This document shows positions 2,795 to 43,231 of a DNA stretch of 64,000 nucleotides, piece by piece (the first letter of the stretch is position 1; every line of letters starts with the position of its first letter). This DNA is from Candidatus Omnitrophota bacterium. Its GTDB lineage: Bacteria; Omnitrophota; Gorgyraeia; Tantalellales; Tantalellaceae. Made by a program: the position numbers and the translations under genes. The DNA is taken from positions 91,964 to 155,963 of the forward strand of contig JADGBR010000001.1 of NCBI GenBank assembly GCA_015231405.1, read 5' to 3'. The notes under the pieces were generated by a model. It had not been told where the DNA came from. It did no database searches and was given only the letters and a program-made list of their open reading frames with translations.

Positions 2795-5700
2795 ATGTAT
2801 TTTAAGCAACTTCAGATCGTCGGGTTCAAATCTTTCCTGAACAAAACTACGTTAAAATTCGATAAGGGAATAACTGCAGTCGTAGGCCCGAATGGCTGCG
2901 GCAAAAGCAATATCGTTGACTCAATGAAATGGGTGCTTGGCGAGCAATCCACTAAATCGATGAGAAGTTCGTCGATGCAGGATGTCATATTCAACGGCAC
3001 CGATAAATTCGAACCCGTCAACGTGGCGGAAGTATCGGTTACATTGTCGAACGAGAATAATATTCTTCCCGTTGATTACAACGAAGTGACCATAACAAGA
3101 AGGCTTTTCCGTTCAGGCGAGAGCGAATACCTGATAAACAAAACGCCCGTAAGGCTCCTGGACGTGAGGAATATCCTTCTCGGCACAGGGATAGGAACAA
3201 GTTCTTATTCGGTGATAGAGCAGGGAAAAATTGACATGATCCTCAGCTCGAAGCCCGAGGAACGCAGACATGTATTCGAGGAGGCCAGCGGGATAACGAA
3301 ATATAAAACGAGAAAGCATGAAGCGATGCTTAAGCTCGAGAGGACCCATGAAAATCTTTTAAGGCTGAACGATATCATCCGTGAAGTTGAAAGACAGATA
3401 AGGTCCATAGAGCGCCAGGCCAGGAAAGCGGACCGTTTCAGGGCCGTGTTCGACGAATTGAAAACTCTGGAGCTGAAGATAGGGACCGTGAATATCAGGG
3501 AGCTTGACGAGACCGGGGCGAAGATCGGTACCGAGACGGATGAAAGCAATGTTATTCTGGAGAACCTCAAGGCCGAGATCAAAAGGGTAGGCGACGAAAT
3601 ATCTCATGACAGGAACGAATACAACGCGCTCATGGAGATCCTTCAGGAAGCCCAATCGGAGACTGTTCGTATCGGGTCCGCCATAGACAAGAACAAACAT
3701 ATCATCAAGATCAACGAGGAAAGGGCAGAGGAGCTGGCTAAGTATGTCCAGAGGCTTGAATGGGAAGTTGAGGAGTCTCAAGGTAGAAAGGACTCGTTGA
3801 AGAACAGGATAGACGCGTTGGAGATAAAGCTTAGCGAGGTAAGCGAGCGCAGGAAAAAGAAGGAAGAGGAAAGAAAAGCCGTAGATGAAAGCATCCAGGG
3901 TATAACGAGGAGCATGGAGGCGAAGGCTGTTGAGTTGAAAGCCCTTCGCGACAGGTCTTTGGACATCATGAGCCATGAGACGAACCTGAGGAACGAGCTG
4001 ATCAAAACGCGCGCCGATATACACAACGCCTCCTCAAGGGAGAAGAGGCTTGAGGCCGAGACGCGGTCGATAGAACTAGAGCTCGAGAAATATACCGACA
4101 GGATGAAGGTTTCTGACGACGAGCTTGGATACGCGCGGGAAGAACTCGAGAATACAAAGGCGCGGTCCGAGTCGATCCACAACGAATATGCCGTTAAGGA
4201 AAGCCAGCTTTCCGGGGCCAGAAATATGAAATTCCAGAAGGAAAGCGGTCTCCACCAGATAAGGCCTAAGATAGAGTTCCTGGAAAAATTGATAGCGGAA
4301 AGGGAAGGGATGTCCGATAGCATCAAGGATCTGATGAGGGCCGTCGAGGAACGAAAAGATATGTTCCCCGGGGTACACGGGATACTTTCAGAGCTTATCA
4401 ACGTAAAGGAAGGGTATGCCGAGACGGTCGAGTCCGTGCTGGGTGATTTTTCACAGGCAATAGTCGTAAATAATCGCGGAGATCTTGGACAGCTGGTTTC
4501 TTTGGCGTCAGAGAAGAACATGGGCAGCGTCAGTTTCGTTGTTCTCGACGAGGTACGGAACATGGAAAGTGACCAGTTGAACGTCGAGGGATGCGAGGGG
4601 ATAAGGCCGTGTAGGGGTGTCATAGGGACACATAACGAGTATTTCGAGCCTTTGACAATGCTTTTTAATAATATTCTCGTATCTTCAGGATCACATGAGG
4701 CTTGGACTTTCCTTGAGGAAAAAAAATTCGCGGGAAGGATACTCTGCGAAAAAGGAGAGATATTCGAGAAAGGAAGACACAGGACAAGGAACCATTCTTT
4801 CAAGGAAGTTTATTCCCTTTTCGGAAGGAGAGAGAAATTGGAAGAGCTTATTTTGATGGAAGGGAGCATAAGGTCCGAGATCTCCGAAATAGCGAGGAGT
4901 GTTGACGAGCTCACTGGGTGGATAGCCGAAACCCTCCCGGTGAAAGAATCGCTCGAGAAGGATATGAGGGAAAGGCAGATACAGTTCGCGGACCTTTCGT
5001 CAAAAAGGAATTCGATAAAAGAAAGGATCGATATCCTCAGGGAAGAGATCATGGTCGTGGATGTAGAGCGCGGTGAAGTCTCAAGGTCCATTAAAGACAT
5101 GGAGGAGAACGCCTTCAAAATGGATCTTCGGACAAAGGAAATAGAGGAGGAGTCACTCGCGATAGAGGATGCTGTCTCCGGCGCCAACAAGGTCATGCAC
5201 GAGCTCACCTTGGAGAGGGACGCTACCGTCCACCGCTCCAATGAGTGTAAGATAGAGCTTTCAGGCAACGTAAAGGAAGAGGAGCACATAAAGGAGAATC
5301 TGGAAAGGGAAAAACAGGCCTATGGGGGCCTCCTCGAGGATGTTGACAATAAAAAGGAGAATATAACTGAGAGCGGCGAAAGGGTTCTATCCTTAAGGAG
5401 TGAAGCCAGGGACCTTACGGTGAAGAACGAGGAGCTAGAGAAACTGAAGGAAGAGAAAATATTCGAAGGGGCCCAGCGGAAAGCGCAGAAAGACTCACTT
5501 GCCGGGATCCTTGCCGCTAAAGAAAGCGAACTCCGGGAGAAGGAGAACGCGCTGGAATCATTGAGGGACAGGTCAAGGGACCTCGATATAAAAAAGAAAG
5601 AGATAGAATACAAAAAAGAGAATATATGCAGGAAGATACTGGACAATTACAAAGTTGAGCTAGGCTCTTTGCCGGTCGAGATAGAGGAAGGGTTCAACCT

Positions 5701-6391
5701 CGAAGAATCCGAGAACAAGATGGTCGATCTTAAGGGAAAGATCGAGGATATGGGAGAGGTCAGCCTTGGAGCAGTAGAAGAGCACAAACAGCTTGAGGAA
5801 AGGTTCGCTTTCCTGACTAAACAGCGCGACGATCTTGTCCTCTCCAAGGACGACATCATGGAGGCCGTAAGGAAGATCAACGCGACCACAAAAAAGCTAT
5901 TCATGGAGTCGTTCGAGACCATAAAGACGGAGTTTAGCCATTATTTCAAGGTCCTTTTTAATGGAGGTAAGGCGGAGATCCTTCTCGAGGATGAGAACGA
6001 CGTGCTTGAATGCGGGATCGATATTGTCGTTCGTCCTCCAGGAAAAAAACTTCAGAACATCATGCTGCTTTCCGGAGGCGAGAAGGCGATGACGGCTATA
6101 GCTCTCATTTTCGCGCTTTTCAAGGTCAACCCGAGTCCGTTCTGTATTCTCGACGAGATCGACGCTCCGCTTGACGAATCTAATGTGGTGAGGTTCTCAA
6201 AGATACTCAAGGAATTCCTTGAAACGTCGCAGTTCATAATCGTTACGCATAACAGGATGACCATACAATTGGCGGACAGACTTTACGGTATCACGATGGA
6301 GGAAAAGGGCGTTTCGAAGGTCGTGACCGTGAAATTCGCAGACGACCAGAAATTAAATGAGCTCCAGGAAGTCGGGGTAGTCGCATCCTAG
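2795..6391 (+). CDS. smc: chromosome partition protein SMC
   Basis: 1198 aa with Walker A GPNGCGKSN and long coiled coils. Hinge and C-terminal signature LSGGEKAMTAIALIFALF...ILDEIDAPLD. Confidence 0.95.
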   Translation: MYFKQLQIVGFKSFLNKTTLKFDKGITAVVGPNGCGKSNIVDSMKWVLGEQSTKSMRSSSMQDVIFNGTDKFEPVNVAEVSVTLSNENNILPVDYNEVTITRRLFRSGESEYLINKTPVRLLDVRNILLGTGIGTSSYSVIEQGKIDMILSSKPEERRHVFEEASGITKYKTRKHEAMLKLERTHENLLRLNDIIREVERQIRSIERQARKADRFRAVFDELKTLELKIGTVNIRELDETGAKIGTETDESNVILENLKAEIKRVGDEISHDRNEYNALMEILQEAQSETVRIGSAIDKNKHIIKINEERAEELAKYVQRLEWEVEESQGRKDSLKNRIDALEIKLSEVSERRKKKEEERKAVDESIQGITRSMEAKAVELKALRDRSLDIMSHETNLRNELIKTRADIHNASSREKRLEAETRSIELELEKYTDRMKVSDDELGYAREELENTKARSESIHNEYAVKESQLSGARNMKFQKESGLHQIRPKIEFLEKLIAEREGMSDSIKDLMRAVEERKDMFPGVHGILSELINVKEGYAETVESVLGDFSQAIVVNNRGDLGQLVSLASEKNMGSVSFVVLDEVRNMESDQLNVEGCEGIRPCRGVIGTHNEYFEPLTMLFNNILVSSGSHEAWTFLEEKKFAGRILCEKGEIFEKGRHRTRNHSFKEVYSLFGRREKLEELILMEGSIRSEISEIARSVDELTGWIAETLPVKESLEKDMRERQIQFADLSSKRNSIKERIDILREEIMVVDVERGEVSRSIKDMEENAFKMDLRTKEIEEESLAIEDAVSGANKVMHELTLERDATVHRSNECKIELSGNVKEEEHIKENLEREKQAYGGLLEDVDNKKENITESGERVLSLRSEARDLTVKNEELEKLKEEKIFEGAQRKAQKDSLAGILAAKESELREKENALESLRDRSRDLDIKKKEIEYKKENICRKILDNYKVELGSLPVEIEEGFNLEESENKMVDLKGKIEDMGEVSLGAVEEHKQLEERFAFLTKQRDDLVLSKDDIMEAVRKINATTKKLFMESFETIKTEFSHYFKVLFNGGKAEILLEDENDVLECGIDIVVRPPGKKLQNIMLLSGGEKAMTAIALIFALFKVNPSPFCILDEIDAPLDESNVVRFSKILKEFLETSQFIIVTHNRMTIQLADRLYGITMEEKGVSKVVTVKFADDQKLNELQEVGVVAS

Positions 6392-12873: not shown

Positions 12874-13515
12874 ATGGTTAAATCAGGGAAAAAGGAAAGC
12901 AAGGCTCAAAGAAGTACGTCTTATGAAAGAAAAACAAAAGAAACACAGATAGATATACCTCTTCTGAACATAGACGGCAAAGGTGAGTCCAGGATCAAGA
13001 CACGCATAGGTTTTCTTGATCATATGCTGACGCTTTTCGCGTATCACGGTTTTTTCGATATAGAGCTTAACGCGGAGGGGGACACCCATGTGGACAATCA
13101 CCACCTTAACGAGGATATAGGTCTGGCCATCGCCGATGCTTTTAAGAAAGCCCTGGCTGAGTCCAGAGGCATCGTAAGGATAGCGTCCGCCGAGGTTCCC
13201 ATGGACATGGTCAGCGCCAAGGTCCTTATCGATATCTCTAATAGGCCGGCATTCAGATTTATATCCAAAAGGGAAGGAGTCGAGATAAAGGACTCGGAAG
13301 GGTATTCGATGCATTACGCCGTGGATTTTCTTGAAAGTTTCGCTAAAAGGCTGGGGATGAACCTTCACATAGAGATAAACGGCGGGGCGAGCGACGTGGA
13401 TATGCACCATTATCTGGAAGCCGTTTTTAAGGCTTTCGGCATGGCGATGGATAAAGCGACTGCGTTAGACCCCAGGCGTGAAGGGGAAGTGCCGTCGAGT
13501 AAGGGGATATTGTAA
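12874..13515 (+). CDS. hisB: imidazoleglycerol-phosphate dehydratase
   Basis: Motifs TKETQIDI, GFLDHML, DNHHLNED, HYLEAVFKAFG of IGPD. Confidence 0.9.
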   Translation: MVKSGKKESKAQRSTSYERKTKETQIDIPLLNIDGKGESRIKTRIGFLDHMLTLFAYHGFFDIELNAEGDTHVDNHHLNEDIGLAIADAFKKALAESRGIVRIASAEVPMDMVSAKVLIDISNRPAFRFISKREGVEIKDSEGYSMHYAVDFLESFAKRLGMNLHIEINGGASDVDMHHYLEAVFKAFGMAMDKATALDPRREGEVPSSKGIL

Positions 13516-13517
13516 TA

Positions 13518-13594
13518 GACTATGGACCATGGACAATGGACTATGGACTTTTTTTGGTCAAATACCTTTTAAGGTCCATGGTCTATGGTCCAAT
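13518..13594. repeat. heptamer array GACNATG x4 (gactatg gaccatg gacaatg gactatg), 28-nt T-rich spacer, reverse-complement array gtccatg gtctatg gtccaat
   Basis: Read directly from the sequence. Lies between hisB and hisH. Predicted stem about 21 bp. Confidence 0.75.
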
Positions 13595-13607
13595 TAGGAT
13601 ATGCGAC

Positions 13608-14216
13608 ATGATTGGTATAATTGATTACGGTTCCGGCAATCTGATGAGCGTTTATAACGCTTTTAAGTATTTGGGCCAAGATGTCCGGGTATGCGGGAAA
13701 CCGTCGGAATTGGACATCGCGGATAAGATCGTTCTCCCCGGCGTAGGATCTTCCAGGGCTGCGATGGATTGTCTCAGTGAAAAAGGGCTCCTGGATGCGA
13801 TAATAGGCGCTATAAAAAAAGGGAAGAACTTCCTTGGTTTGTGCCTGGGGCTCCAGCTTTTACTCGAAACGAGCGAAGAGAGCGGAGGGTGTGATTGTTT
13901 AGGGCTCTTCAAGGGGACTGTAAGGCTTTTCCCCGGGAACATGGGCCTAAAAGTCCCGCATATGGGATGGAACACTGTAGGCTTCGGAAAAAGGGATTGC
14001 CCTATTTTTAAGGGGATACCTGACAATAGCTATTTTTATTTTGTTCATTCTTATTACTGCGATAACCGGGACGAAGCCATAACCGCCGGCGTAACGGGCT
14101 ATGGTCTGGATTTTACATCCGCTGTATGGGACGCGAACGTATTCGCGCTGCAATTCCACCCGGAAAGGTCTCAGGAGAACGGGTTACGAATACTAAGAAA
14201 CTTCATAGAGCTATGA
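13608..14216 (+). CDS. hisH: imidazole glycerol phosphate synthase, glutaminase subunit
   Basis: [15 protein letters not shown], catalytic [14 protein letters not shown]. Confidence 0.9.
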
Positions 14217-22963: not shown

Positions 22964-23391
22964 GAATACTCGGACTGGATATGGGGACTAAAAGGATAGG
23001 CGTGGCGCTTTCCGACGAAATGGGGATGCTTGCCCAGGGGAAGGGATTCATTATTAGAAAAGGAACAGGTCCTACGCTCAAAGAGATAAGGGATATCGTG
23101 CTGACTGAAGGAGTGATAAGGATAGTCATCGGACTGCCGCTTAATATGGACGGCTCCGAAGGAGAAAGAGCTAAGGACGCGAGATCCTTCGCTCTCATTG
23201 TGGAAAAGGATACGGGTAAAGAGGTGATACTCTGGGATGAAAGGCTCAGCACGAAGGAAGTGGAGGATATTATGATCGAAGCCGATCTCTCAAGGAGAAA
23301 GCGTAAAGGCCTGGTCGATAAAATGGCTGCGCAGGTGATACTGCAGGGGTATCTTGACTTTCAAAATGCGTCCCGTGAGTTAGCCAACTGA
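22960..23391 (+). CDS. ruvX: Holliday-junction resolvase-like nuclease YqgF/RuvX
   Basis: [19 protein letters not shown]; 143 aa. Confidence 0.85.
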   Translation: MRILGLDMGTKRIGVALSDEMGMLAQGKGFIIRKGTGPTLKEIRDIVLTEGVIRIVIGLPLNMDGSEGERAKDARSFALIVEKDTGKEVILWDERLSTKEVEDIMIEADLSRRKRKGLVDKMAAQVILQGYLDFQNASRELAN

Positions 23392-23462
23392 CACGCATTT
23401 TAAAAATATATAAATTTAGATCGTGCCCTCATTTTAGTTCAGCACGATCTAAAAGGAGGATA

Positions 23463-24731
23463 ATGTATTCTGAGAACAAGTTAGCTAATGGTTTGAAGGT
23501 GATAGTATCCCCCATGCCCCATATGAATTCCGTATCGATCGGAGTTTGGATAGGCGTTGGCGGGAGGCATGAAAACACTGCCCAGAGCGGTATCAGCCAT
23601 TTTATCGAGCACATGGTCTTTAAAGGAACCCTTCTGCGTTCGGCGAAAGAACTTAAGGAATCGGTTGAAGGCGTTGGCGGCGCGCTTAACGGGTTCACGT
23701 CCGATGAGGTGACCTGTTATATGGTCAAGGTCCCGGCTAGATATTTTGAGAGCGGCATGGATATACTCACGGATATGGTATATAACCCTAAATTCGACGA
23801 AGAAAGTATCGTGAACGAAAAATTCGTAATATGCGAAGAGATCAAGATGTATAAGGACCAGCCAGCGGAGCATGTCCACGAAATACTCGAGGGAGTGATG
23901 TGGCCGGGTAATCCAATGGGCCGGCCTCTTACCGGTACCATCTCCACGGTCAAGTCTTTTAAGAGGGATGACATAGTCAAGTTCAAGAAGAAGTATTATT
24001 CCCCTTCGAATATCGCGGTGGTCGTCGTAGGAAAGATAACGACGAAAGAGGTCATGAAATATGTTTCCCGCCTCTATAAGGGCGACGCTCAAAAGACGCC
24101 GGGCTACTATCCCGTAAAACTGTCCCAAAAAGACCTGAAGGTGGCTATTTCCCGCCGGAAGACAAAACAGATGCATCTCGCTATCGGGTTCCCTGTAAAG
24201 AACACATCGGAGAATGACAAGTTCGCGTCGCAGCTTACAAGTGTAATACTGGGCGGGAACATGTCCTCACGCCTGTTCGAGGAACTCAGGGAGAAGAAAG
24301 GCCTCTGTTACGACATTGCCTCCAGCTTTAAATATCATAAAGATATAGCCGAGTTCGTGATACACGGCGGGATCGACCGGGGCAAATTCCATATAGCCCT
24401 TTCGGGGATAATTGACGAGGTCATCAAACTGAAGGAGCAAGGCGTTAAAGAAGATGAGCTCATAAGGGCGAAAGAATTCGCTAAAGGCCAGTTCCAACTC
24501 GGGCTCGAAAGCACTTCCAACAGGATGATATGGCTGGGAGATAAGATAATGGTCGATGGGAAGATCCCGGATATAGAACATATCCTTAGTTCTCTTGATA
24601 AGGTCACCTGCCTAGACATTAAATCGGTCTCCCTGAGGATTTTCTCGCGTTCGATGGCTAATCTGGCGGTCATCGGGGATCTTGCCGAGAAGGATAAGAG
24701 CTGGATGATAAGAGACCTGGAAAGGTTATGA
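23463..24731 (+). CDS. M16-family zinc peptidase (insulinase-like)
   Basis: Inverted zinc motif HFIEHMVFKGT (HxxEH); 422 aa. Confidence 0.85.
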   Translation: MYSENKLANGLKVIVSPMPHMNSVSIGVWIGVGGRHENTAQSGISHFIEHMVFKGTLLRSAKELKESVEGVGGALNGFTSDEVTCYMVKVPARYFESGMDILTDMVYNPKFDEESIVNEKFVICEEIKMYKDQPAEHVHEILEGVMWPGNPMGRPLTGTISTVKSFKRDDIVKFKKKYYSPSNIAVVVVGKITTKEVMKYVSRLYKGDAQKTPGYYPVKLSQKDLKVAISRRKTKQMHLAIGFPVKNTSENDKFASQLTSVILGGNMSSRLFEELREKKGLCYDIASSFKYHKDIAEFVIHGGIDRGKFHIALSGIIDEVIKLKEQGVKEDELIRAKEFAKGQFQLGLESTSNRMIWLGDKIMVDGKIPDIEHILSSLDKVTCLDIKSVSLRIFSRSMANLAVIGDLAEKDKSWMIRDLERL

Positions 24732-30421: not shown

Positions 30422-30955
30422 ATGAATCTGCCGAATTCGATAACAGTGATAAGGATAATACTGGTGCCGGTATTCGTTCTTTTTATCCTGTATCATAAGC
30501 TGGAGATATCCTTCGCGATATTCATCGCGGCAGCGTTCACGGACGCGCTTGACGGGTATCTCGCCAGGACCCTCAAACAGAAAACAAAACTTGGAGCTTT
30601 CCTGGACCCTATCGCGGATAAACTGCTTGTCGGAAGCGCTTATTTCTGCTTCAGCCTGGTAAATGACCTGCCCCAATATGTCCGTATGCCGATATATGTG
30701 CCGCTTGTCGTGATAAGCCGCGATGTTCTGATCTTAATAGGATTCATGATAATTAATCTTCTCAAGGGTGAGATAGAGGTCAGGCCGACTATCCTGGGGA
30801 AATTAACTACTTTTTTCCAGATGCTCACGATAGGGGCGCTTCTAACGCGTTATGTCCATTCGAACATTATTTGGAACACGATGGTCGCTTTGACCATAAT
30901 ATCGGGCCTTGATTATCTAAGGATCGGGGCTAAAAAGGTGAATATCAATGGATAA
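30422..30955 (+). CDS. pgsA: CDP-alcohol phosphatidyltransferase (phosphatidylglycerophosphate synthase-like)
   Basis: DALDGYLAR...G...DPIADK motif; 4-5 TM helices. Confidence 0.8.
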   Translation: MNLPNSITVIRIILVPVFVLFILYHKLEISFAIFIAAAFTDALDGYLARTLKQKTKLGAFLDPIADKLLVGSAYFCFSLVNDLPQYVRMPIYVPLVVISRDVLILIGFMIINLLKGEIEVRPTILGKLTTFFQMLTIGALLTRYVHSNIIWNTMVALTIISGLDYLRIGAKKVNING

Positions 30956-32294
30956 AGAATATCCCTCTGTTTGCATTGTCGGCAGGCCTAACGTAGGAAA
31001 ATCTTCTCTTTTTAACTGGTTCGCCGGAGAACGGAAAGCCGTTGTCCTTGAAGAGTCCGGCACGACCCGGGACAGGGTCGAGGCTGTCATTGAATTGTTC
31101 AGGAGAAAGGTGACGGTCTCGGACACAGGAGGGTATCTTCAGGAGGATACGGATAAAATGTCGGTAATGGTGAAGCAGCAGATCAGGAACGCTATCAAAG
31201 AGGCCGATGTCCTTATCATGGTGACCGACGCTCAGGCCGGCGTGGTCCCGGCGGATATTGAAATAGCGGCTATTATCAGGAAAGCGGATAAGCCGGTGAT
31301 CCTCGCCGTCAATAAGGCCGATAACCGGGCGCTGGATGCCGATTCGGTCGATTTCTTTCAATTGGGGCTTGGCGACCCTTTACCGGTATCATGCCTTCAC
31401 CGAAGGGGCATGGAGACGCTCAAGGAGGCGGTCCGGAAGGTCATGCCGGATGAGTTCGTGAGGTCGGATAACAACGATAAAAGTTCCATAAAAATAGCCG
31501 TAGTCGGCAGGCCCAATGTCGGGAAATCATCCTATATAAACTACATATTGAAAAGGGACAGGGTCATAGTCAGCGATATGCCTGGTACTACCAGGGATTC
31601 GGTCGATATTTTCTTCAATGACGGCAAGAACGACTATACGCTCATAGATACCGCGGGAATAAGGCATTCGAGGAAAATATTCCGGGCAGTCGACGTTTTC
31701 AGCATCATGAGGTCAAAGGGATCCATAAAAAGGGCCGATGTAGTGATATTTCTCCTGGACTCCGTTGACGGCGCGACGCATGACGATCTGGCTATATTAA
31801 GGTATATAATGGAGAACGGTAAAGCGTGTATCGTTATCATAAATAAATGGGACCTTGCCCGGGGGGTTGAGGATGTGGATCAGGAAGGATACCATGAAAG
31901 CCTGATCGCCGCGTCGCCCGTATTCAGGGTATTTCCCGTATTCTTTGTCTCTTCGGTATCAGGTAGGAACGTGATGAAAAGTTTCGCATCCGTAAAACAG
32001 CTGAACGATGCTCTTGACCGGGAATTCCAGACGTCTTCCCTGAACAAGATATTCGAAAAGAACGATCCCTCCAAAGTCCCAGTCCCCAGGAGCGATAAAA
32101 GGCCGAATTTCATGTATATTACGCAGACCGGAAAAAGACCTGTAGAGTTCACGTTCTTCGTGAATAGCGCCGGGGCAGTAACCCCCGGGCATCTTAGTTA
32201 TATCGAGAATGTTTTAAGGAAGAACGTTGAGCTTGAAGGGATACCAATATCCATTAAGATACGTGCGGCAAAAGAAAAAAAGGAGAGGAAGTGA
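30948..32294 (+). CDS. der: ribosome-biogenesis GTPase Der (EngA)
   Basis: Two GTPase domains (GRPNVGKSSLFN, GRPNVGKSSYIN) plus a KH-like C-terminus. Confidence 0.9.
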   Translation: MDKEYPSVCIVGRPNVGKSSLFNWFAGERKAVVLEESGTTRDRVEAVIELFRRKVTVSDTGGYLQEDTDKMSVMVKQQIRNAIKEADVLIMVTDAQAGVVPADIEIAAIIRKADKPVILAVNKADNRALDADSVDFFQLGLGDPLPVSCLHRRGMETLKEAVRKVMPDEFVRSDNNDKSSIKIAVVGRPNVGKSSYINYILKRDRVIVSDMPGTTRDSVDIFFNDGKNDYTLIDTAGIRHSRKIFRAVDVFSIMRSKGSIKRADVVIFLLDSVDGATHDDLAILRYIMENGKACIVIINKWDLARGVEDVDQEGYHESLIAASPVFRVFPVFFVSSVSGRNVMKSFASVKQLNDALDREFQTSSLNKIFEKNDPSKVPVPRSDKRPNFMYITQTGKRPVEFTFFVNSAGAVTPGHLSYIENVLRKNVELEGIPISIKIRAAKEKKERK

Positions 32295-32905
32295 TCATCT
32301 TAATTATTTTCGGCGTAGTACTGGCCTATTTGCTGGGGTCTTTGCCGACGGCGTATATATTCGGTAAAACACTGAAAAATATCGATATCAGGGAGCACGG
32401 GAGCGGCAATATGGGCGCGACCAATGTTTTCAGAACAGTCGGGAAAACTCCCGGGTTGATAGTTCTTGTCATCGATTTCCTGAAAGGGCTTTTAGCCGTC
32501 ACTATGATCCCGATCATCCTGAAAAGATTTATTCCTGCATACGCGGAAAATAGCGCGTGGATACTTATATTATTTGGGGTAGCCGTAATATGCGGCCACG
32601 TTTGGACTATATTCCTTAATTTCAAAGGGGGTAAAGGCGTCGCGACGACAGCCGGTGTCCTTGCCGGAATATCGCCGCTTATCCTGATCCTATGTCTGGC
32701 GGTTTTTTCGACGGTATTTTATATATGGAGATATGTTTCCCTTGGTTCGATAATTGCCGCGTTATTCCTCCCGATATTTGCAGTGATCTTCAATAACAAT
32801 ATCTACTATGTTTTATTTTGTTCGGGGTTAACGATACTCGCTATAATAAAGCATAGAGAGAATATCAGGCGGCTTATCAGGGGGGAGGAGAAGAGACTGA
32901 TATGA
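32291..32905 (+). CDS. plsY: glycerol-3-phosphate acyltransferase PlsY
   Basis: GSGNMGATNVFR, NFKGGKGVAT; multi-TM. Confidence 0.9.
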   Translation: MIILIIFGVVLAYLLGSLPTAYIFGKTLKNIDIREHGSGNMGATNVFRTVGKTPGLIVLVIDFLKGLLAVTMIPIILKRFIPAYAENSAWILILFGVAVICGHVWTIFLNFKGGKGVATTAGVLAGISPLILILCLAVFSTVFYIWRYVSLGSIIAALFLPIFAVIFNNNIYYVLFCSGLTILAIIKHRENIRRLIRGEEKRLI

Positions 32906-32987
32906 GAATGGTGTCTACGGGAATATAAAATACGATTTTAATCAGTTAACCCTGCCAAGTAAACAAAAAAAAAGCCAGTATTAATTC

Positions 32988-33016
32988 TTGATTTCACTTC
33001 CCTGGTGAAGTATAAT
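32988..33016 (+). promoter_or_regulatory. near-consensus sigma70 promoter TTGATT-17-TATAAT in AT-rich islet
   Basis: TTGATT at 32988-32993, 17-nt spacer, TATAAT at 33011-33016. Lies in a visibly AT-rich spacer 88 nt upstream of the orphan ORF at 33104. Confidence 0.6.
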
Positions 33017-33103
33017 TAGTCTTGTTAACCAACTTAAAAGGAAAATAATAAATAAAATACTTTTACAAATCTTTAAAAAAGAACTAAAAAAAAGCAGGTT
33101 AAA

Positions 33104-33469
33104 ATGAAGCAACTAGTATACAAAACACTTGAGGGGAACAATCCAAGAAAAAAAGAAGTTTCGATACAGGAGATCGAAGATTGCGCCATAACTCAAGTGA
33201 AAAAAGAATGGACCTGCAAATATTTTGTAAAATCAACTCATGTCTCAAGATCTGAAGAGGACCTTAATAAATGGGTCTCAAGAAATAAAAAAAGCGATAA
33301 GAACGTGAAGAGTTGCCATCTGTTCAAGGAGATCGATACTGAGCGGAATACCACAAAAGTCGTATGTAAAGTTCTTGGCGAATTCTTCGCCATTACCGGT
33401 CTTACGGTAATAAAGATCGTTTATATCAATTCATTAAAAATATTCATGTCAAACACAAAGGGGAATTGA
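33104..33469 (+). CDS. hypothetical Lys-rich protein (orphan, no recognisable domain)
   Basis: 121-aa ORF in a region much more AT-rich than its neighbours, driven by the strong promoter above. Four Cys residues, basic, hydrophobic C-terminal tail FFAITGLTVIKIVYI. No family recognised by eye. Confidence 0.45.
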   Translation: MKQLVYKTLEGNNPRKKEVSIQEIEDCAITQVKKEWTCKYFVKSTHVSRSEEDLNKWVSRNKKSDKNVKSCHLFKEIDTERNTTKVVCKVLGEFFAITGLTVIKIVYINSLKIFMSNTKGN

Positions 33470-33657
33470 AGTGAAGGAATTATTGCGTTCATTCATGGTA
33501 TTTATGGCATTCGTAAAGCTCAGCATGATCAAGCTGCAATTATCCGATTGCGAGAATAAAGTACGGGCCAGATAAGCAGATAATTTGACGGGTTCGCAAA
33601 TCCCAGTCAATTACCTCCTGGACCTGAATGGTGTGTCGCCTTTCACGGTCAGGACAA

Positions 33658-33690
33658 ACGGAGATGGCGTAAGCCGTCTCCGTTTTTTTT
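33658..33690 (+). terminator. rho-independent terminator (11-bp stem, GUAA loop, 7-8 U)
   Basis: ACGGAGATGGC-gtaa-GCCGTCTCCGT followed by TTTTTTT. Ends the transcript that starts at the 33011 promoter. ORF 33585-33803 spans it and is therefore rejected. Confidence 0.8.
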
Positions 33691-34008
33691 ACCCACTGAT
33701 GGATCTAGTCCAATTTCCCCTCTCCACTATCCACCAATTCTCCGAGCACTACCCATTATCAATTTTCAACCCAACCCGGTATCTCATCCACACACCTCAT
33801 TGATAGTGTAACAATTTATGCTGACTTTCATCATGCGCGCGGCGAGGTGTGGACTTCCTCTTCAAGCCTTCCCCTGGGAATTTAACAACGACTTTAACAT
33901 GCCGTTTTTAGACCTTGCGCATTCACCCCTCCTCCGCCTTCGGATTCGGAGGATGAGCCGCAAGCAAGGAGGTTGTCATAAAAACGTCATGTAAAAGGCT
34001 AAAATTTC

Positions 34009-34024
34009 CAAAGGGGCCCCTTTG
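34009..34024. repeat. perfect 16-bp palindrome CAAAGGGGCCCCTTTG
   Basis: Self-complementary with no loop, so it is a DNA-level dyad, a typical dimeric-regulator site. About 350 bp upstream of the XRE gene. Confidence 0.6.
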
Positions 34025-34104
34025 CTTAAAGAGGATATCCACACCTTGACCCTTCCCGTAATGAAAAATCCCAGGAATCTCCAGGTCTTTGCGAAAGGGG
34101 TGAG

Positions 34105-34258
34105 GGCGTGAAGGAGATGGGGTTCTTCGTAAGGCACTTTGCTGTCCCGATATCCAAAGTAGCCTTGTGCGTGGACCTTGCAAATGTTACAGCCGAGGAC
34201 ACAAACCCAACAAGAAGTTTGCAAAGTGCCTGTAGAAGGTTCCCATCTCCTTCACGCC
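34105..34258. repeat. 154-bp element bounded by imperfect 38-bp inverted repeats (MITE-like or long hairpin)
   Basis: Arm 34105-34142 vs arm 34221-34258. Perfect matches of 17 bp (GGCGTGAAGGAGATGGG / CCCATCTCCTTCACGCC) and 10 bp (GGCACTTTGC / GCAAAGTGCC) flank an 11-bp mismatched patch. 78-nt centre. Confidence 0.55.
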
Positions 34259-34338
34259 ATCGTCACGAGAAGCATGAAACTTTTGAAAGTCAGCAAGGTT
34301 CTTGACAGTATGGATCCCGATGGATCTCATTGATACTA

Positions 34339-34367
34339 TTGCGTAGCGGAATTGACGGTGATATACT
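34339..34367 (+). promoter_or_regulatory. putative promoter TTGCGT-17-TATACT placing the TSS at the XRE ATG (leaderless mRNA)
   Basis: The -10 TATACT ends 6 nt before ATG 34374. No Shine-Dalgarno precedes the ATG. Confidence 0.35.
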
Positions 34368-34373
34368 GACTCC

Positions 34374-34742
34374 ATGAGTTTTTCACGCAATCTTAGATCC
34401 GCCAGGATGAAGGCGGGAATGTCTCAGAAAGTTCTTGCGCTTGGATTGAAAGTGAAACAGTCCACGGTATCAAAATGGGAACAGGGGAAGAGGACTCCCG
34501 GAATGAAGAAGATATCCCTTATCGCCCAGTCGCTTAGAACTTCGATATCGAGCCTGGTAAAATATAAAAAGGAAAACGTTCTTTTATCCCATGACCTGGC
34601 AGTGAGACTCCTGGACCAGTTGAACGCGGCTTCGTTCATTGTCGAGCGCCTCATTAAGGGTGATACTCCTGACAGGGGTGTCCTGATCGCAGCTCAAAAA
34701 CAGATCAGGGACGCGGTAAAGATATTGAGGTCTTCAAGATGA
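34374..34742 (+). CDS. XRE-family (Cro/cI-type) helix-turn-helix transcriptional regulator
   Basis: LRSARMKAGMSQKVLALGLKVKQSTVSKWEQGKRTP is a canonical HTH_XRE. 122 aa. The stop overlaps the next gene start (ATGA). Confidence 0.8.
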   Translation: MSFSRNLRSARMKAGMSQKVLALGLKVKQSTVSKWEQGKRTPGMKKISLIAQSLRTSISSLVKYKKENVLLSHDLAVRLLDQLNAASFIVERLIKGDTPDRGVLIAAQKQIRDAVKILRSSR

Positions 34743-36124
34743 GATATACCCTTAAACTCTTCACGATCGTCATAGCGTTAATATCGTTACAGCACTGGCA
34801 GGCCAGGGCCGAGGAGAGCGACAGAGATCTGGTGATGAAAGGAGCCGATCTCGCGCGAAAAGGGAGGTACGACGAGGCGGTGAACGAGATCGATAAGGCG
34901 CTTAAGCTCAATTCAGGGAACCCTGCGGCCTATTACATCAGGGGGGTAGCCTGTTTTTATCAGGGTAACACAAAAAAGGCGCTGGGAGATTTCGATAAGG
35001 CAATAGACCTGAACCGTAAATACGCTGACGCGTACAATGGAAGAGGACTTGCCCTCGCCTCCGCCGGTCTGGCGGATCGCGCCTTAGAGGATTTTAATAC
35101 GACTTTAGAGCTTGACCCAAAGAACGCTTCGGCGTACATGAACCGGGCTGTTACTTATTTTAAGAAGAAACAATATGAGAAAAGTATGGCGGACGTCAAA
35201 AAAGCCGAATCGCTTGGAGCTAAAGTTAATTCAAGGTTCCTTTCCGATCTGAATATTTCCGTTGCGATCGATAATTTAAGGACGTGGGCCTTTGGTTTTA
35301 AAGGCGGGATACAGTTAAACCGAAAAGGAGGAGTTATGGGAATTCTGATAGGTATCGCGATAGTCGTTATCGCTTTCTCTTTGAGGATAATCCAACAATA
35401 TGAGACAGGAGTGGTTTTCCAGCTTGGGCGGTATTCAAGGACGCTTCATCCCGGTTTGAATTTCATAATACCGGTAATAGAGCACGCAAGGGTGGTCGAT
35501 ATGAGGATATCGACACATGACATACCCGAGCAGCAGGTTATAACCAAAGACAATGTTCCGGTAGCTATTAACGGGGTCGTGTATTTCAAGGTAGAGAACG
35601 CGCAAACGGCGGTCATAAAGGTGCAGAATTACACGTACGCCGTTTCACAGTACGCGCAAGCCGCGCTTAGGGATGTGGTAGGCGGGATGACACTCGACGA
35701 CCTTCTGACGGAAAGACAGAAGATCGGCGAAAAGATCGAGGAGAGCATACAGAAAGAGGCGGCATCCTGGGGCTTGCTGGTAACGGCGATTAAACTCCAG
35801 GATGTAAATATGCCCGAGGACCTTAAAAAGATCATGTCCAGACAAGCTTCCGCTGAAAGGGAAAAAAGGGCCACGATAACAAAAGCCGAAGGCGATAAAA
35901 TGGCCGCTTTGAATCTCGCGGAAGCGGCAAAAACTATGGCGGCGTCTCCCGGCGCCATGCAGCTAAGAACGCTTCAGACTATCGACGGCCTTGGGCCAAG
36001 CCCCTCAAATACCGTAGTTCTAGCGGTGCCGGTAGATATACTCGAACTAGCTCGGGGGCTTAATATCCAATTTTCGGAAAATGCTCAAAAACAGGTCAAC
36101 GTTGCGGTTGAAAAAAGGTCTTGA
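34739..36124 (+). CDS. signal peptide + TPR repeats + TM helix + SPFH/band-7 (stomatin/prohibitin-like) domain fusion protein
   Basis: N-terminal signal peptide (LFTIVIALISLQHWQARA); about 4 TPR units (AAYYIRGVACFYQGNTKKALGDFDKAIDLN...). TM helix GILIGIAIVVIAFSL, then SPFH core (VITKDNVPVAINGVVYFKVENAQ...AALRDVVGGMTLDDLL...) with a coiled-coil tail. Confidence 0.8.
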   Translation: MRYTLKLFTIVIALISLQHWQARAEESDRDLVMKGADLARKGRYDEAVNEIDKALKLNSGNPAAYYIRGVACFYQGNTKKALGDFDKAIDLNRKYADAYNGRGLALASAGLADRALEDFNTTLELDPKNASAYMNRAVTYFKKKQYEKSMADVKKAESLGAKVNSRFLSDLNISVAIDNLRTWAFGFKGGIQLNRKGGVMGILIGIAIVVIAFSLRIIQQYETGVVFQLGRYSRTLHPGLNFIIPVIEHARVVDMRISTHDIPEQQVITKDNVPVAINGVVYFKVENAQTAVIKVQNYTYAVSQYAQAALRDVVGGMTLDDLLTERQKIGEKIEESIQKEAASWGLLVTAIKLQDVNMPEDLKKIMSRQASAEREKRATITKAEGDKMAALNLAEAAKTMAASPGAMQLRTLQTIDGLGPSPSNTVVLAVPVDILELARGLNIQFSENAQKQVNVAVEKRS

Positions 36125-36195
36125 GTTTTACGAAGATCAGCATTATATTAATATAAGTTGTCATGTTTAATGATCTTATGTGGAAGGGGGGGGCG

Positions 36196-36822
36196 ATGAT
36201 GAGGAAAACAATATTTCTCGCGATTCAGATGCTGTTTATTTTTGGGAACGTCGCCTGTTTCGGTGCCGGACCTATCGAATTTGATTTTGAGCAGAGCGAG
36301 CAGACATGGTTCGTTCCGGATTGGGCGATCTCCCAGGATGATTGCGTCTGTAAGAACGCGATCCTCTCTGCAGTTCAGCCCTTTGAGGGTAAGCAATCCC
36401 TGGAGCTTCAATGCAAATTCCCGGGGAATAAATGGACCGGGGCCGTAGTGGAATTTGACGGTCAAATGGACCTGTCAGGATGCAAAGGGATAAGCGCCGA
36501 AGTGTATCTGCCCAAGGAAGTCAACAGTAATCTGCTTTTAGGACGGTTCTTTTTCACCGCCGGGGACAAATGGAGCTTTATAGAAAGCCGTAATACTACC
36601 CAGCTTAAACCCGGTGAATGGACCAAAATATCCGCGACATTTGATACCACCAACCCGAAAGGGACACCGAACTGGAAATTCAAGAGAGAACAGGGTAATC
36701 TTCAGGACAATATCAAGGATATACGCCGAGTTGGGGTTCGGATCGAATATAACGCGAATGAGTGGCAGGCCGGCGCTCCATATGAAGGTCCGGTGTATAT
36801 TGATAATGTCGTTATAGAATGA
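36196..36822 (+). CDS. secreted hypothetical protein, beta-sandwich / carbohydrate-binding-module-like
   Basis: Signal peptide MMRKTIFLAIQMLFIFGNVACFGA after RBS GGAAGGGGGGG. Trp/Asn-rich beta-strand pattern, C-terminal GPVYIDNVVIE. Family not identified. Confidence 0.6.
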   Translation: MMRKTIFLAIQMLFIFGNVACFGAGPIEFDFEQSEQTWFVPDWAISQDDCVCKNAILSAVQPFEGKQSLELQCKFPGNKWTGAVVEFDGQMDLSGCKGISAEVYLPKEVNSNLLLGRFFFTAGDKWSFIESRNTTQLKPGEWTKISATFDTTNPKGTPNWKFKREQGNLQDNIKDIRRVGVRIEYNANEWQAGAPYEGPVYIDNVVIE

Positions 36823-36905
36823 CCGATGAAGAAATCGTAGGGGCGGGGTTCCCTCGCCCCTATATATGTGGAAGTTTTGATTTCACACGCTTTTATACGC
36901 CGCCA

Positions 36906-36934
36906 TTGACTCGCTTTCCGCGATATGCTACAAT
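36906..36934 (+). promoter_or_regulatory. sigma70-like promoter upstream of gpsA (TTGACT-17-TACAAT)
   Basis: TTGACT at 36906-36911, 17-nt spacer, TACAAT at 36929-36934, 19 nt before the gpsA ATG. Confidence 0.5.
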
Positions 36935-36952
36935 TCACATCTGTTTTATCAT

Positions 36953-37927
36953 ATGAAGATACTTGTCATAGGCGACGGAGGGTGGGGAACCGCCCTGTCA
37001 ATTTTGTTAAATAATAAAGGTCATAATGTGACCTTGTGGAGCTATTCTCCCGAATATGCGGATGTTCTTAGGAAGAAAAGGGAGAATGTAAAATTCCTTA
37101 AGGGGATCAGTATCCCGGGTAAAATAAAGATAACTTCGGAGCTCAAAAGAAAAGATATTTTTGACCTGGTCCTATTCGCTGTGCCTTGCGGTTATTTAAG
37201 TTCCGTTGCGGAAAAGTTCAGGGATTTCCCGTTCGGGAAGATCGTAAGCGCTACCAAAGGGATAGAGAACGGTTCGTTGAGAAGGCCTTCGGAGATACTC
37301 AAAAGCTATTATAAAAGAGCTTCGATAGCCGTTCTTTCCGGACCAAGCATTTCCGGAGAGGTAGCCAAAGGGTTCCCAGCGGCGCTTGTTCTGGCCGGAA
37401 AAGGGTTATTTCGTGAAGAGGCGCAGAAAGCTCTTTCGACCGACAGGTTCAGGGTCTACACTTCTGGAGATATCACGGGTGTCGAACTTGGCGGAGCGGT
37501 GAAGAATGTCGTAGCTATTGCAGCTGGAATATCTGATGGCCTCGGGTTCGGGACTAACACCAAGGCCGCTATATTGACAAGAGGCCTGGCTGAGATAGTA
37601 AGGCTTGGCGACACACTCGGAGCGAAAGAAGACACGTTCAAGGGATTAAGCGGGATAGGGGATCTGGCCACTACATGTATGAGCTCGAACAGCAGGAACA
37701 GGTGGTTTGGGGAACAGCTCGGCCTAGGGCGTAAGATCCAGGATATACTTGGAGAGACAGAGATGGCCGTAGAGGGGGTGCTGACCTCAAGATCTGTTAA
37801 CGAGCTAGCGGTAAAGCATTCAGTGGATATGCCTATAACGCGGAAGATATACGAAATTATTTACGAAGGCAAAGATCCGAAACGTGCGGTCTTTGAGTTG
37901 ATGACGCGTGAACTTAAGAGCGAATAA
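36953..37927 (+). CDS. gpsA: NAD(P)H-dependent glycerol-3-phosphate dehydrogenase
   Basis: MKILVIGDGGWGTALS Rossmann motif; 324 aa. Confidence 0.9.
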   Translation: MKILVIGDGGWGTALSILLNNKGHNVTLWSYSPEYADVLRKKRENVKFLKGISIPGKIKITSELKRKDIFDLVLFAVPCGYLSSVAEKFRDFPFGKIVSATKGIENGSLRRPSEILKSYYKRASIAVLSGPSISGEVAKGFPAALVLAGKGLFREEAQKALSTDRFRVYTSGDITGVELGGAVKNVVAIAAGISDGLGFGTNTKAAILTRGLAEIVRLGDTLGAKEDTFKGLSGIGDLATTCMSSNSRNRWFGEQLGLGRKIQDILGETEMAVEGVLTSRSVNELAVKHSVDMPITRKIYEIIYEGKDPKRAVFELMTRELKSE

Positions 37928-42001: not shown

Positions 42002-43231
42002 ATGAGTAAGAAAGATATAATTGTCCAGAAGTTCGGGGGAACAAGTGTGGCCACTCCGGAGAGGATAAAGAACGTGGCGAAAAAAGTTTCGGCATGTAAG
42101 AGGAAGGGATACGATGTAGTGGTGGTAGTGTCGGCCCTTGGCGAAACGACAGATGAGCTTATTAAGCTTGCGGATCAGATAGATACCGACCCGTCGGAAA
42201 GGGAGATGGACATGCTCCTTTCCACGGGTGAGCAGATATCGGTGGCTCTTTTGGCCATGGCGCTTCACAAAATAGGCGAGGAAGCCATTTCTTTTACGGG
42301 GGCTCAGGTCGGCATAATGACCGACACCAGCCATACTAAAGCGAGGATACTGGATATATCGACCGAACGCATTAAGAAAGAACTTGGAAAAGGAAAGATC
42401 GTAATAGTGGCGGGGTTCCAGGGGATAAGCCTCCATCATGAGATCACTACACTCGGCCGCGGCGGGTCGGATATGACAGCCGTCGCTTTGGCTAAAGTTC
42501 TTAAGGCTAAAATGTGCGAGATATACACTGACGTTAAAGGAATATATACCGCCGATCCCAGGATAGTCGGGAACGCGAGAAAACTCGACACTATATGCTA
42601 CGACGAGATGCTCGAGCTCGCGTCTTTGGGCGCTCAGGTCATGCAGGCGAGGAGCATGGAAGTCGCCTCGAAGTTCAATGTGCCTATACATGTGAGGTCA
42701 AGTTTTTCTGATGATAACGGAACTATTATCGGCAAGGAGGATAAGAAAATGGAAGAAGTACTGGTTAGAGGCGTTACCGTAAATAAAGGCGAGGCGAGGG
42801 TCATAGTTTCAGGCGTTCCCGATAAGCCGGGGGAAGCGAGCCGGTTGTTCGAGTATCTGGCCAAAGAGAACATCAACGTGGACATGATAATCCAGAATAA
42901 ATCCACTTCCGGGACGACCGATATCACTTTTACGGCACCGGAGTCATCGTTGGCCAGGACCCAGAAAGTTGTGGACAAGGCCTCTAAAGAGATGGGTTCC
43001 GCTGAAGTTAAATACGACAAAGATATCGCGAAACTTTCGGTTGTCGGCATCGGTATGCGCAGCCACGCGGGCGTCGCCGCGAAAATGTTCAAATGTCTCG
43101 CCTCGAAAAAGATAAATATCGAGATGATATCGACCAGCGAGATAAAGATATCCTGCGTAATAAAGAGGAAGGACGCCGATGAGGCTGTAAAGGCCCTTCA
43201 TAAAGCCTTTGGGCTGGACAAGGTCCGTTAA
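42002..43231 (+). CDS. lysC: aspartate kinase (monofunctional, with ACT domains)
   Basis: IVQKFGGTSVA N-terminus, kinase core, two C-terminal ACT domains. Confidence 0.9.
   Translation: MSKKDIIVQKFGGTSVATPERIKNVAKKVSACKRKGYDVVVVVSALGETTDELIKLADQIDTDPSEREMDMLLSTGEQISVALLAMALHKIGEEAISFTGAQVGIMTDTSHTKARILDISTERIKKELGKGKIVIVAGFQGISLHHEITTLGRGGSDMTAVALAKVLKAKMCEIYTDVKGIYTADPRIVGNARKLDTICYDEMLELASLGAQVMQARSMEVASKFNVPIHVRSSFSDDNGTIIGKEDKKMEEVLVRGVTVNKGEARVIVSGVPDKPGEASRLFEYLAKENINVDMIIQNKSTSGTTDITFTAPESSLARTQKVVDKASKEMGSAEVKYDKDIAKLSVVGIGMRSHAGVAAKMFKCLASKKINIEMISTSEIKISCVIKRKDADEAVKALHKAFGLDKVR

Follow-up and report, generated by a model that had tools for sequence, protein, structure and literature searches.

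We analysed a 64,000-nt stretch of a Candidatus Omnitrophota genome (GenBank assembly GCA_015231405.1, contig JADGBR010000001.1), called the window below, and describe a gene in it (ORF2, Table 1) whose 461-residue product combines a signal peptide, tetratricopeptide repeats (TPR), a single transmembrane (TM) helix and an SPFH/Band_7 domain. We propose, with a probability of roughly 0.7, that this gene is a stomatin/QmcA-type scaffold gene of the Omnitrophota fused in frame with a preceding gene that coded for a secreted TPR protein, that it would give a long and a short product which assemble with one another, and that its two neighbours, encoding an XRE-type regulator (ORF1) and a secreted protein resembling a carbohydrate-binding module (CBM; ORF3), are incidental. 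An earlier note on this DNA, made from the letters alone, had described the three genes as one module with an architecture not seen before. Open reading frame (ORF) calls, Pfam searches and AlphaFold2 (AF2) models agree with its account of the three reading frames and their features, and the sequence bears out the ATGA overlap that it reported, in which the TGA stop of the XRE gene overlaps the ATG of the fusion gene (…tcaagATGAgat…).

Architecture of the fusion protein

The 461-residue protein is 100% identical to an NCBI entry. Its N-terminus, as read from the sequence, is MRYTLK-LFTIVIALISL-QHWQARA/EE (the slash marks the predicted cleavage site), which has the n/h/c layout of a signal peptide with an h-region of 11 residues. 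Pfam places TPR_1 (8e-24) and TPR_2 (1.3e-20) at residues ~30-160, and AF2 predicts four helix pairs and a capping helix in residues 30-180 with pLDDT values of 95-98. The motif of this cap, YF.KK.Y.K..ADV.KAE.LG..V...FL..L, also stands near the end of free TPR proteins, whose chains run on for only about 10 residues beyond it. The lone 19-residue segment with a Kyte-Doolittle mean above 1.6 falls at residues 193-221, where AF2 puts a helix at residues 198-219, and the Band_7 model (PF01145) matches residues 217-387 with 144.6 bits against a cut-off of 23.6 (E=4.3e-42).

Among the best 120 of 4907 protein matches, this layout of signal peptide, TPR, TM helix and SPFH domain occurs in two, the window protein itself and P0002, a protein of 490 residues from another assembly (GCA_041643025.1, locus L001) that is 63% identical to it and has one extra TPR. 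The leader of P0002, MLKRKNLTK-IGILALMALVVVIAAG-YAQ/G, keeps the n/h/c layout with different residues.

The SPFH half and the housekeeping stomatins of Omnitrophota

The other 118 of these 120 matches are proteins of ~255 residues that consist of an anchor and a Band_7 domain and share 74-92% identity with residues ~200-450 of the fusion; many of them are labelled Omnitrophica. The hydrophobic anchor of the fusion lies directly N-terminal of the SPFH domain and aligns with the anchors of these standalone proteins. A phmmer search of the PDB with the fusion gave human stomatin (7e-48), PH1511 (3e-46), QmcA (3e-35) and HflK (5e-12), and the NCBIfam models for HflK, HflC and FloT remained far under their cut-offs (TIGR01933, 92.6 bits against 159.4). 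By these sequence comparisons, the SPFH half is the housekeeping stomatin of Omnitrophota, of the stomatin/QmcA (SPFH1) type.

A scan of ORFs with Pfam saw no NfeD domain in the genes neighbouring the fusion, and there is no second SPFH gene within the 64-kb window. The absence of a local NfeD partner, which the earlier note had reported, is thus real, but it does not set this locus apart as the note supposed. In a published survey, 229 of 353 SPFH1 genes had an NfeD operon partner (Hinderhofer et al. 2009). Nine contexts of standalone orthologues, all varied and of a housekeeping kind, also had no NfeD gene beside the stomatin, and a Pfam search for a disguised NfeD downstream of the standalone genes gave zero matches. 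Because the standalone genes lack NfeD as well, the missing partner is a property of the whole clade.

The standalone contexts gave some observations in their own right. In two loci (L003, 4608-10141; L101, 566-4316) the stomatin gene stands in a tight row of kdsA, kdsD, a kdsC-like hydrolase gene, the SPFH gene, a lipid A acyltransferase gene, LptC/LptA-like genes and LptB, which hints that the stomatin is tied to the synthesis or export of lipopolysaccharide. It adjoins a nitroreductase gene in two others (L004, L104), and elsewhere it lies near a Zip transporter gene, near a second Band_7 gene, behind HTH_17 genes, or behind the gene of a small secreted coiled-coil protein (L100). On a contig of JGI 3300050821, from one Omnitrophota genome, a 285-residue Band_7 gene (4126-4983) is directly upstream of the standalone orthologue (5001-5771), and this tandem pair resembles the hetero-oligomers of the HflK/C type. 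A TPR gene upstream of the closest standalone stomatins was considered and rejected: the places are taken by the coiled-coil protein (L100), the kdsC-like hydrolases (L003, L101), the nitroreductases (L004, L104) and other genes.

Predicted topology

In the literature, QmcA-type proteins are assigned to the cytoplasmic face of the membrane and HflK/C to the periplasmic face. The anchor of the standalone orthologues is preceded by uncharged residues and followed at once by an Arg, and for this reason we read these proteins as N-out/C-in. An anchor of this kind can bear a large N-terminal domain (175 residues) only if that domain is exported; since both fusions have a signal peptide, the TPR array would lie in the periplasm and the SPFH domain in the cytoplasm, with one membrane pass between them.

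In the opposite arrangement, which we consider improbable, the N-terminal segment would not be exported, the TPR would be cytoplasmic and the SPFH domain would be periplasmic as in HflK/C. SPFH proteins of the HflK/C type do face the periplasm, and the window protein has three positive charges immediately ahead of the TM helix but a single one in the 15 residues that follow it, a distribution that alone favours this orientation and is the chief argument against our reading. However, the SPFH half is of the stomatin/QmcA type and not of the HflK type by the E-values and the TIGR01933 score given above, each of the two fusions begins with a canonical signal peptide and its AXA-like site, and the charges around the standalone anchors indicate N-out/C-in. 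Two of the three charges before the helix stem from the codons of a Shine-Dalgarno sequence, and the charge at this place in P0002 is net +1 only.

Rarity of the architecture

Peptide patterns from the TPR and linker regions, run against 185,579 species (one genome each) and the JGI metagenomes, found zero further TPR+SPFH genes. A genome scan with the N-terminal half gave 80 generic TPR loci (identity 47% or less), 0 of them with an SPFH gene within 6 kb, and a metagenome scan with an alignment of the cap and linker gave 8 loci, all of which encode free TPR proteins without SPFH. An exhaustive phmmer search with the full-length 461-residue protein was swamped by long TPR-repeat proteins and is uninformative on further fusions. 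TPR fusions are common in general. Our literature search found no description of a TPR-TM-SPFH architecture, and in the survey of prokaryotic SPFH proteins by Hinderhofer et al. (2009) the term 'TPR' occurs zero times. These results support the view, in line with the earlier note, that the architecture is very rare and, as far as we could find, undescribed.

Age and origin of the fusion

The fusion is old. Only 45 of 141 four-fold degenerate sites are identical between them, i.e. these sites are saturated. The indels that separate the pair are a whole TPR of 34 residues and one in-frame codon in the linker, so that the frame is unbroken and contains zero stops, and the differences within the linker are mostly third-position or synonymous (GGC/GGA, GGG/GGA, ATA/ATC, TTA/CTT, AAC/AAT). 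Saturated silent sites, an intact frame and synonymous changes in the linker together argue that the junction is translated under selection in both lineages.

This bears directly on whether the fusion could be an artefact, in which separate genes for a secreted TPR protein and a stomatin had been merged by a sequencing or assembly error through a lost stop or a frameshift. An intact Shine-Dalgarno sequence and ATG are found exactly where a separate stomatin gene would start, as such an error would predict. Against it, a second assembly, produced independently in another study, has the identical in-frame junction in a protein of 63% identity, and the linker evolves like coding sequence. A junction maintained by selection in both lineages practically rules out an assembly error, and we give this explanation almost no weight.

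In the alignment, Met200 of the fusion falls precisely on the first residue, Met1, of the standalone proteins (MGIL...). The simplest history would be an old stop-loss fusion, in which a secreted TPR gene directly upstream of a stomatin gene lost its stop and was read through the spacer. The former stop codon and the intergenic spacer would then have become translated linker, so that residues 186-199 are probably the former spacer, and the ribosome-binding site and ATG of the stomatin would survive within the ORF at Lys-Gly-Gly-Val-Met200.

When the SPFH parts were placed in a neighbour-joining tree, the standalone proteins P0003 and P0004 clustered with the window protein, and other standalone proteins with P0002. 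The clade of the window protein and P0003 excluded P0002 in 100 of 100 bootstraps, and about 30 standalone proteins are nearer to each fusion than the fusions are to one another. Independent fusion in the two lineages is unlikely because the linker is homologous and coding in both. Repeated loss of the N-terminal extension appears to be the better explanation, with transfer of the N-terminal module as the alternative. If the internal start is functional, such a loss would be harmless, because the short form would still be made from it; under a reading with two forms, the continued function of the short one would thus account for fusions in different branches of the stomatin tree.

A probable internal start at Met200

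The sequence AAAGGAGGAGTT precedes Met200 and is identical in both fusion genes, as is a stretch of 18 nt, AAAAGGAGGAGTTATGGG, shared by the window and L001. Lys-Gly-Gly-Val-Met200 is encoded in both genes by AAA GGA GGA GTT ATG. Identical codons are used at 124 of 293 conserved residues gene-wide, which puts the chance of the codon identity over the Shine-Dalgarno sequence at ~0.03, and the neighbouring conserved residues use different codons. The standalone stomatin genes have comparable purine-rich contexts of a Shine-Dalgarno sequence followed by ATGGG.

Across the + strand of the window, 10 ATGs show the pattern GGAGG-N3-9-ATG. Of these, 7 fall on or close to a gene start, 1 is out of frame, and 2 are deep and in frame, namely Met200 of the fusion and residue 250 of aspartokinase (lysC, Table 1); outside the fusion gene, the pattern marks real starts. 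The lysC gene is known for an internal in-frame start of its beta subunit at the corresponding site. The site at residue 250 fits this known arrangement of alpha and beta subunits, which it would extend to the Omnitrophota.

The Shine-Dalgarno sequence and ATG at Met200 are the start signal that the fusion has kept from the ancestral standalone stomatin gene, and they probably serve as an internal initiation site. On balance, we favour that the gene makes both the long protein and the ordinary short stomatin. A competing view is that only the long product matters and that the internal AAAGGAGG-ATG is a functionless relic, kept for the protein sequence Lys-Gly-Gly-Val-Met. We regard this as unlikely, though as a serious competitor. 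The residues KGGVM are themselves conserved in the protein, the spacer is short at 4 nt, and identity of codons in two sequences may be chance at the level given above. However, all four degenerate codons are identical where the neighbouring conserved residues use different ones, a strong in-frame intragenic Shine-Dalgarno-ATG is otherwise absent from the window save for the known lysC start, and the many standalone genes nested around both fusions are most easily explained if the short form stayed functional.

Proposed assembly and comparison with known systems

Our proposed mechanism has three steps. The signal peptide would export the TPR domain, with the old anchor acting as a stop-transfer helix and the SPFH domain staying on the cytoplasmic face as in QmcA. 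Two products would be made, the long protein with signal peptide, TPR, TM helix and SPFH domain, and the ordinary short protein of TM helix and SPFH domain from the internal start. Both forms would then enter one stomatin-type ring, giving an inner-membrane cage with a variable number of periplasmic, protein-binding TPR arms, which would link the microdomain to a partner located in the periplasm or the outer membrane. The XRE protein would be a lineage-specific regulator that is incidentally co-translated with the fusion in this genome, and the CBM-like gene would be adjacent only. In the strongest form of this proposal, one gene yields two co-assembling stomatin forms, their ratio would be set by translation, and the cage would thereby be connected through the inner membrane to such a partner; this form is tentative, and we put it below even odds.

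Several points weigh against the fusion reading as a whole. We infer both products and the topology from sequence. The nucleotide constraint on the Shine-Dalgarno sequence has p ~0.03 and comes from two genes only, and its 4-nt spacer is on the short side. AF2 has low confidence in the SPFH half, so that the model allows no structural statement on ring assembly. The charges around the TM helix, taken alone, favour the reverse orientation. In the SPFH tree the two fusions do not form a sister pair, and a single origin needs several later losses or a transfer. The search for fusions was limited by TPR noise, so that two genomes are a lower bound, and the case rests on these two uncultured genomes.

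The proposed protein can be set beside four known systems. Residues 200-461 of the fusion are built like stomatin, p-stomatin PH1511 and E. coli QmcA (SPFH1), with one N-terminal anchor, Band_7 and C-terminal helices, and by analogy a large homo-oligomeric ring or dome is expected on the cytoplasmic face (PDB entries have 16 chains for stomatin and 26 for QmcA). The fusion differs from these proteins in ~199 extra N-terminal residues (signal peptide, 4 TPR and linker) and, probably, in two translation starts; it has no adjacent NfeD gene, as is true of the standalone Omnitrophota orthologues. With HflK/HflC (SPFH3, modulators of FtsH) it shares the SPFH domain, the single anchor and, presumably, cage formation, whereas the sequence similarity is much weaker, the predicted orientation is opposite and the gene for a paired second subunit is absent. 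As in lysC, a strong internal Shine-Dalgarno sequence and in-frame ATG would give long and short products with a common C-terminal part, although aspartokinase is an unrelated protein family and the internal start of the fusion is a putative one. Finally, periplasmic TPR scaffolds such as NlpI, PilW, Tgl and MamA-like proteins also have 3-5 canonical TPRs exported by a signal peptide, presumably for binding proteins, but they are free or lipid-anchored, whereas the array of the fusion would be tethered to a stomatin anchor. Matches of the fusion TPR to NCBIfam models of such scaffolds were sub-threshold only, and no family cut-off was reached.

Little is understood so far of what bacterial stomatin-type SPFH cages do. 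A natural variant with a protein-binding TPR array across the membrane could lead to partners of such cages, and it could show that a connection of the cages to the periplasm is feasible. If the gene does use the internal start that it has kept, it would be a clean example of an evolutionarily reversible gene fusion.

The XRE and CBM-like genes as neighbours

The earlier note took the three genes, which it placed beside an acquired islet, for a single unit under XRE control that could be concerned with envelope stress and conceivably with phage defence or abortive infection. Some features speak for such a unit: the overlap of the XRE stop with the fusion start means that these two genes are co-expressed here, the XRE protein is weakly like phage repressors, the DNA just upstream contains an AT-rich orphan ORF together with a long non-coding stretch, and the whole segment is placed between plsY and gpsA. 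The only other fusion gene, however, has no XRE or CBM-like neighbour; its flanks in L001 encode an unrelated 124-residue protein, a small acidic secreted protein and a zinc-finger peptide. The XRE protein has no relatives (among 5.8 billion proteins its sole match was itself), the homologues of ORF3 sit in polysaccharide-synthesis contexts, and the SPFH half is a vertically conserved housekeeping protein. PADLOC-DB 2.0 gave zero matches for the fusion, ORF3 and the upstream orphan ORF, and for the XRE protein it gave generic helix-turn-helix (HTH) or control-protein models only. The three genes have the G+C content of their flanks. The DNA upstream of them showed no similarity to phages or plasmids, and there are no repeats of a kind that would point to integration. 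The XRE and CBM-like genes are chance neighbours of the fusion, and the idea of a module is not supported; we consider an acquired stress or defence module very improbable. The earlier note had also said that its proposal would fall if the same fusion proved to be a widespread housekeeping gene outside an XRE context. The SPFH part is indeed widespread as a housekeeping protein without XRE or accessory genes beside it, but the fusion itself is not widespread.

HTH_3 (PF01381) covers residues 7-59 of the XRE protein with 50.9 bits against a cut-off of 23 (E=1.6e-13). The top NCBIfam match was phage_RstR, at 47 bits under a cut-off of 80, and no specific subfamily was reached. As for pairing with a toxin in a type II toxin-antitoxin system, there is no adjacent small toxin of a known family, and the downstream gene encodes the 461-residue membrane scaffold. 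The small ORFs upstream of XRE had zero Pfam matches.

There is no Shine-Dalgarno sequence before the XRE ATG at 34374. The hexamer TTGCGT lies 17 nt upstream of a candidate -10 element (Table 1), and from the two together we infer a promoter that would yield a leaderless XRE transcript; it scores under the threshold of the promoter scan. A start at 34374 that has no Shine-Dalgarno sequence and follows TGaTATACT by 6 nt suggests a leaderless mRNA like that of some phage repressors. The NCBI annotation begins the XRE protein at Met16 (107 residues, leaving out 34374-34421), which cuts off helix 1 of HTH_3.

ORF3 most likely starts at 36196, with GGAAGGGGGG upstream, and not at 36163. Its product has an N-terminal hydrophobic leader. 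The AF2 model (pLDDT 79) matched CBM-type beta-sandwich structures in the PDB with Foldseek, namely 1wky (5.6e-7), the CBM27 protein 1oh4 (2.6e-6), CBM11, CBM22, CBM4 and CBM28, with TM-scores of only 0.4-0.6, and Pfam gave a sub-threshold match to Mann_GBD_bact (22.7 bits, cut-off 27) and one to CBM27 with E=0.07. Three homologues (37-39% identity) are all located between glycosyltransferase clusters and a response regulator, and SPFH or XRE genes are never adjacent to them. We take ORF3 as a neighbour of the fusion and not as a partner.

Genomic setting

All genes around the three-gene segment are on the + strand. G+C content is 0.46-0.52 over the three genes and their flanks, and a drop to 0.33 is confined to 33000-33499. 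Around 32906-36950 no integration signatures were found beyond short, chance-level repeats. The 1.47 kb upstream had zero similarity to the phage and plasmid collections.

Table 1. Features of the window referred to in the text; positions count from its first letter.
Feature	Positions	Strand	Basis or remark
lepB, pgsA, then der	der 30948-32294	+	upstream flank
plsY	32291-32905	+	upstream flank, directly before the 1.47-kb stretch
1.47-kb stretch with one AT-rich orphan ORF	between plsY and XRE gene
Promoter-like site	32988-33016		10/12 match
Orphan Lys-rich ORF, 121 aa	33104-33469		no Pfam, NCBIfam or PADLOC match
Possible 34-codon ORF	GTG start 33471
Strong terminator hairpin	33656-33685		13-bp stem and T-run
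Candidate extended -10 element TGaTATACT	34362-34367	+	6 nt before XRE ATG; direct sequence reading
ORF1, XRE/Cro-CI-type HTH regulator, 122 aa, orphan sequence	34374-34742	+	HTH_3
ORF2, TPR-stomatin fusion, 461 aa: signal peptide, 4 TPR and cap helix, linker, TM helix, SPFH/Band_7, C-terminal helices	34739-36124	+
Sec-type signal peptide, residues 1-24, predicted cleavage ARA/EE	34739-34810	+	n/h/c layout
Four TPR repeats and C-terminal capping helix, residues 28-185, predicted periplasmic	34820-35293	+	Pfam, AF2
Linker, residues 186-199, translated	35294-35335	+	conserved as GGI.LN.KGGV
Putative internal Shine-Dalgarno AAAGGAGGA, 4-nt spacer, ATG (Met200)	35324-35338	+	alignment, nucleotide identity
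Single TM helix, residues 200-218, homologous to standalone stomatin anchor	35336-35392	+	hydropathy, alignment, AF2
SPFH/Band_7 domain, stomatin type, residues 217-387, predicted cytoplasmic	35387-35899	+
ORF3, secreted CBM-like beta-sandwich protein, 208 aa	36196-36822	+	AF2, Foldseek
gpsA	36953-37927	+	downstream flank
tRNA-Pro	38031		beyond gpsA; then hom, thrC, apgM
Aspartokinase lysC	42002-43231, internal ATG 42749		in-frame AAGGAGG-N7-ATG at residue 250, just before ACT regulatory half

The stretch upstream of the XRE gene

Positions 32988-33685, which lie behind plsY and ahead of the structured region described next, form a self-contained, AT-rich cassette (33% G+C), whose promoter-like site, orphan ORF, possible 34-codon ORF and terminator hairpin are listed in Table 1.

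The ~500 nt directly upstream of XRE (33790-34300, within the non-coding stretch 33690-34373) contain no ORF longer than 86 residues and no match to the compared loci, phages or plasmids. A decayed gene in 33690-34373 was considered and rejected, the small ORFs having no credible Pfam matches, and Rfam found no family there at E of 1 or less except a terminator-like hairpin. The minimum free energy (MFE) of 33790-34300 is -206 kcal/mol, against -143±5.7 for shuffled sequences (z=-11.1 on the + strand and -8.7 on the - strand), and the region, which occurs once in the window, deviates most of all in a scan of MFE versus GC over the whole window. Its predicted fold has two long imperfect hairpins, with arms at 33845-33910/33979-34046 and 34102-34142/34221-34261, inside an outer stem. 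Each arm of the second hairpin encodes the peptide VKEMG.F.RHFA, on opposite strands. The region could be a structured RNA, a foldback element like a miniature inverted-repeat transposable element, or an inverted duplication of a gene fragment. In the same kind of scan with 500-nt segments, folding energy was also low for the G+C content at 13126-14000 and 23126-23750, with residual z of about -2.4 to -2.7.

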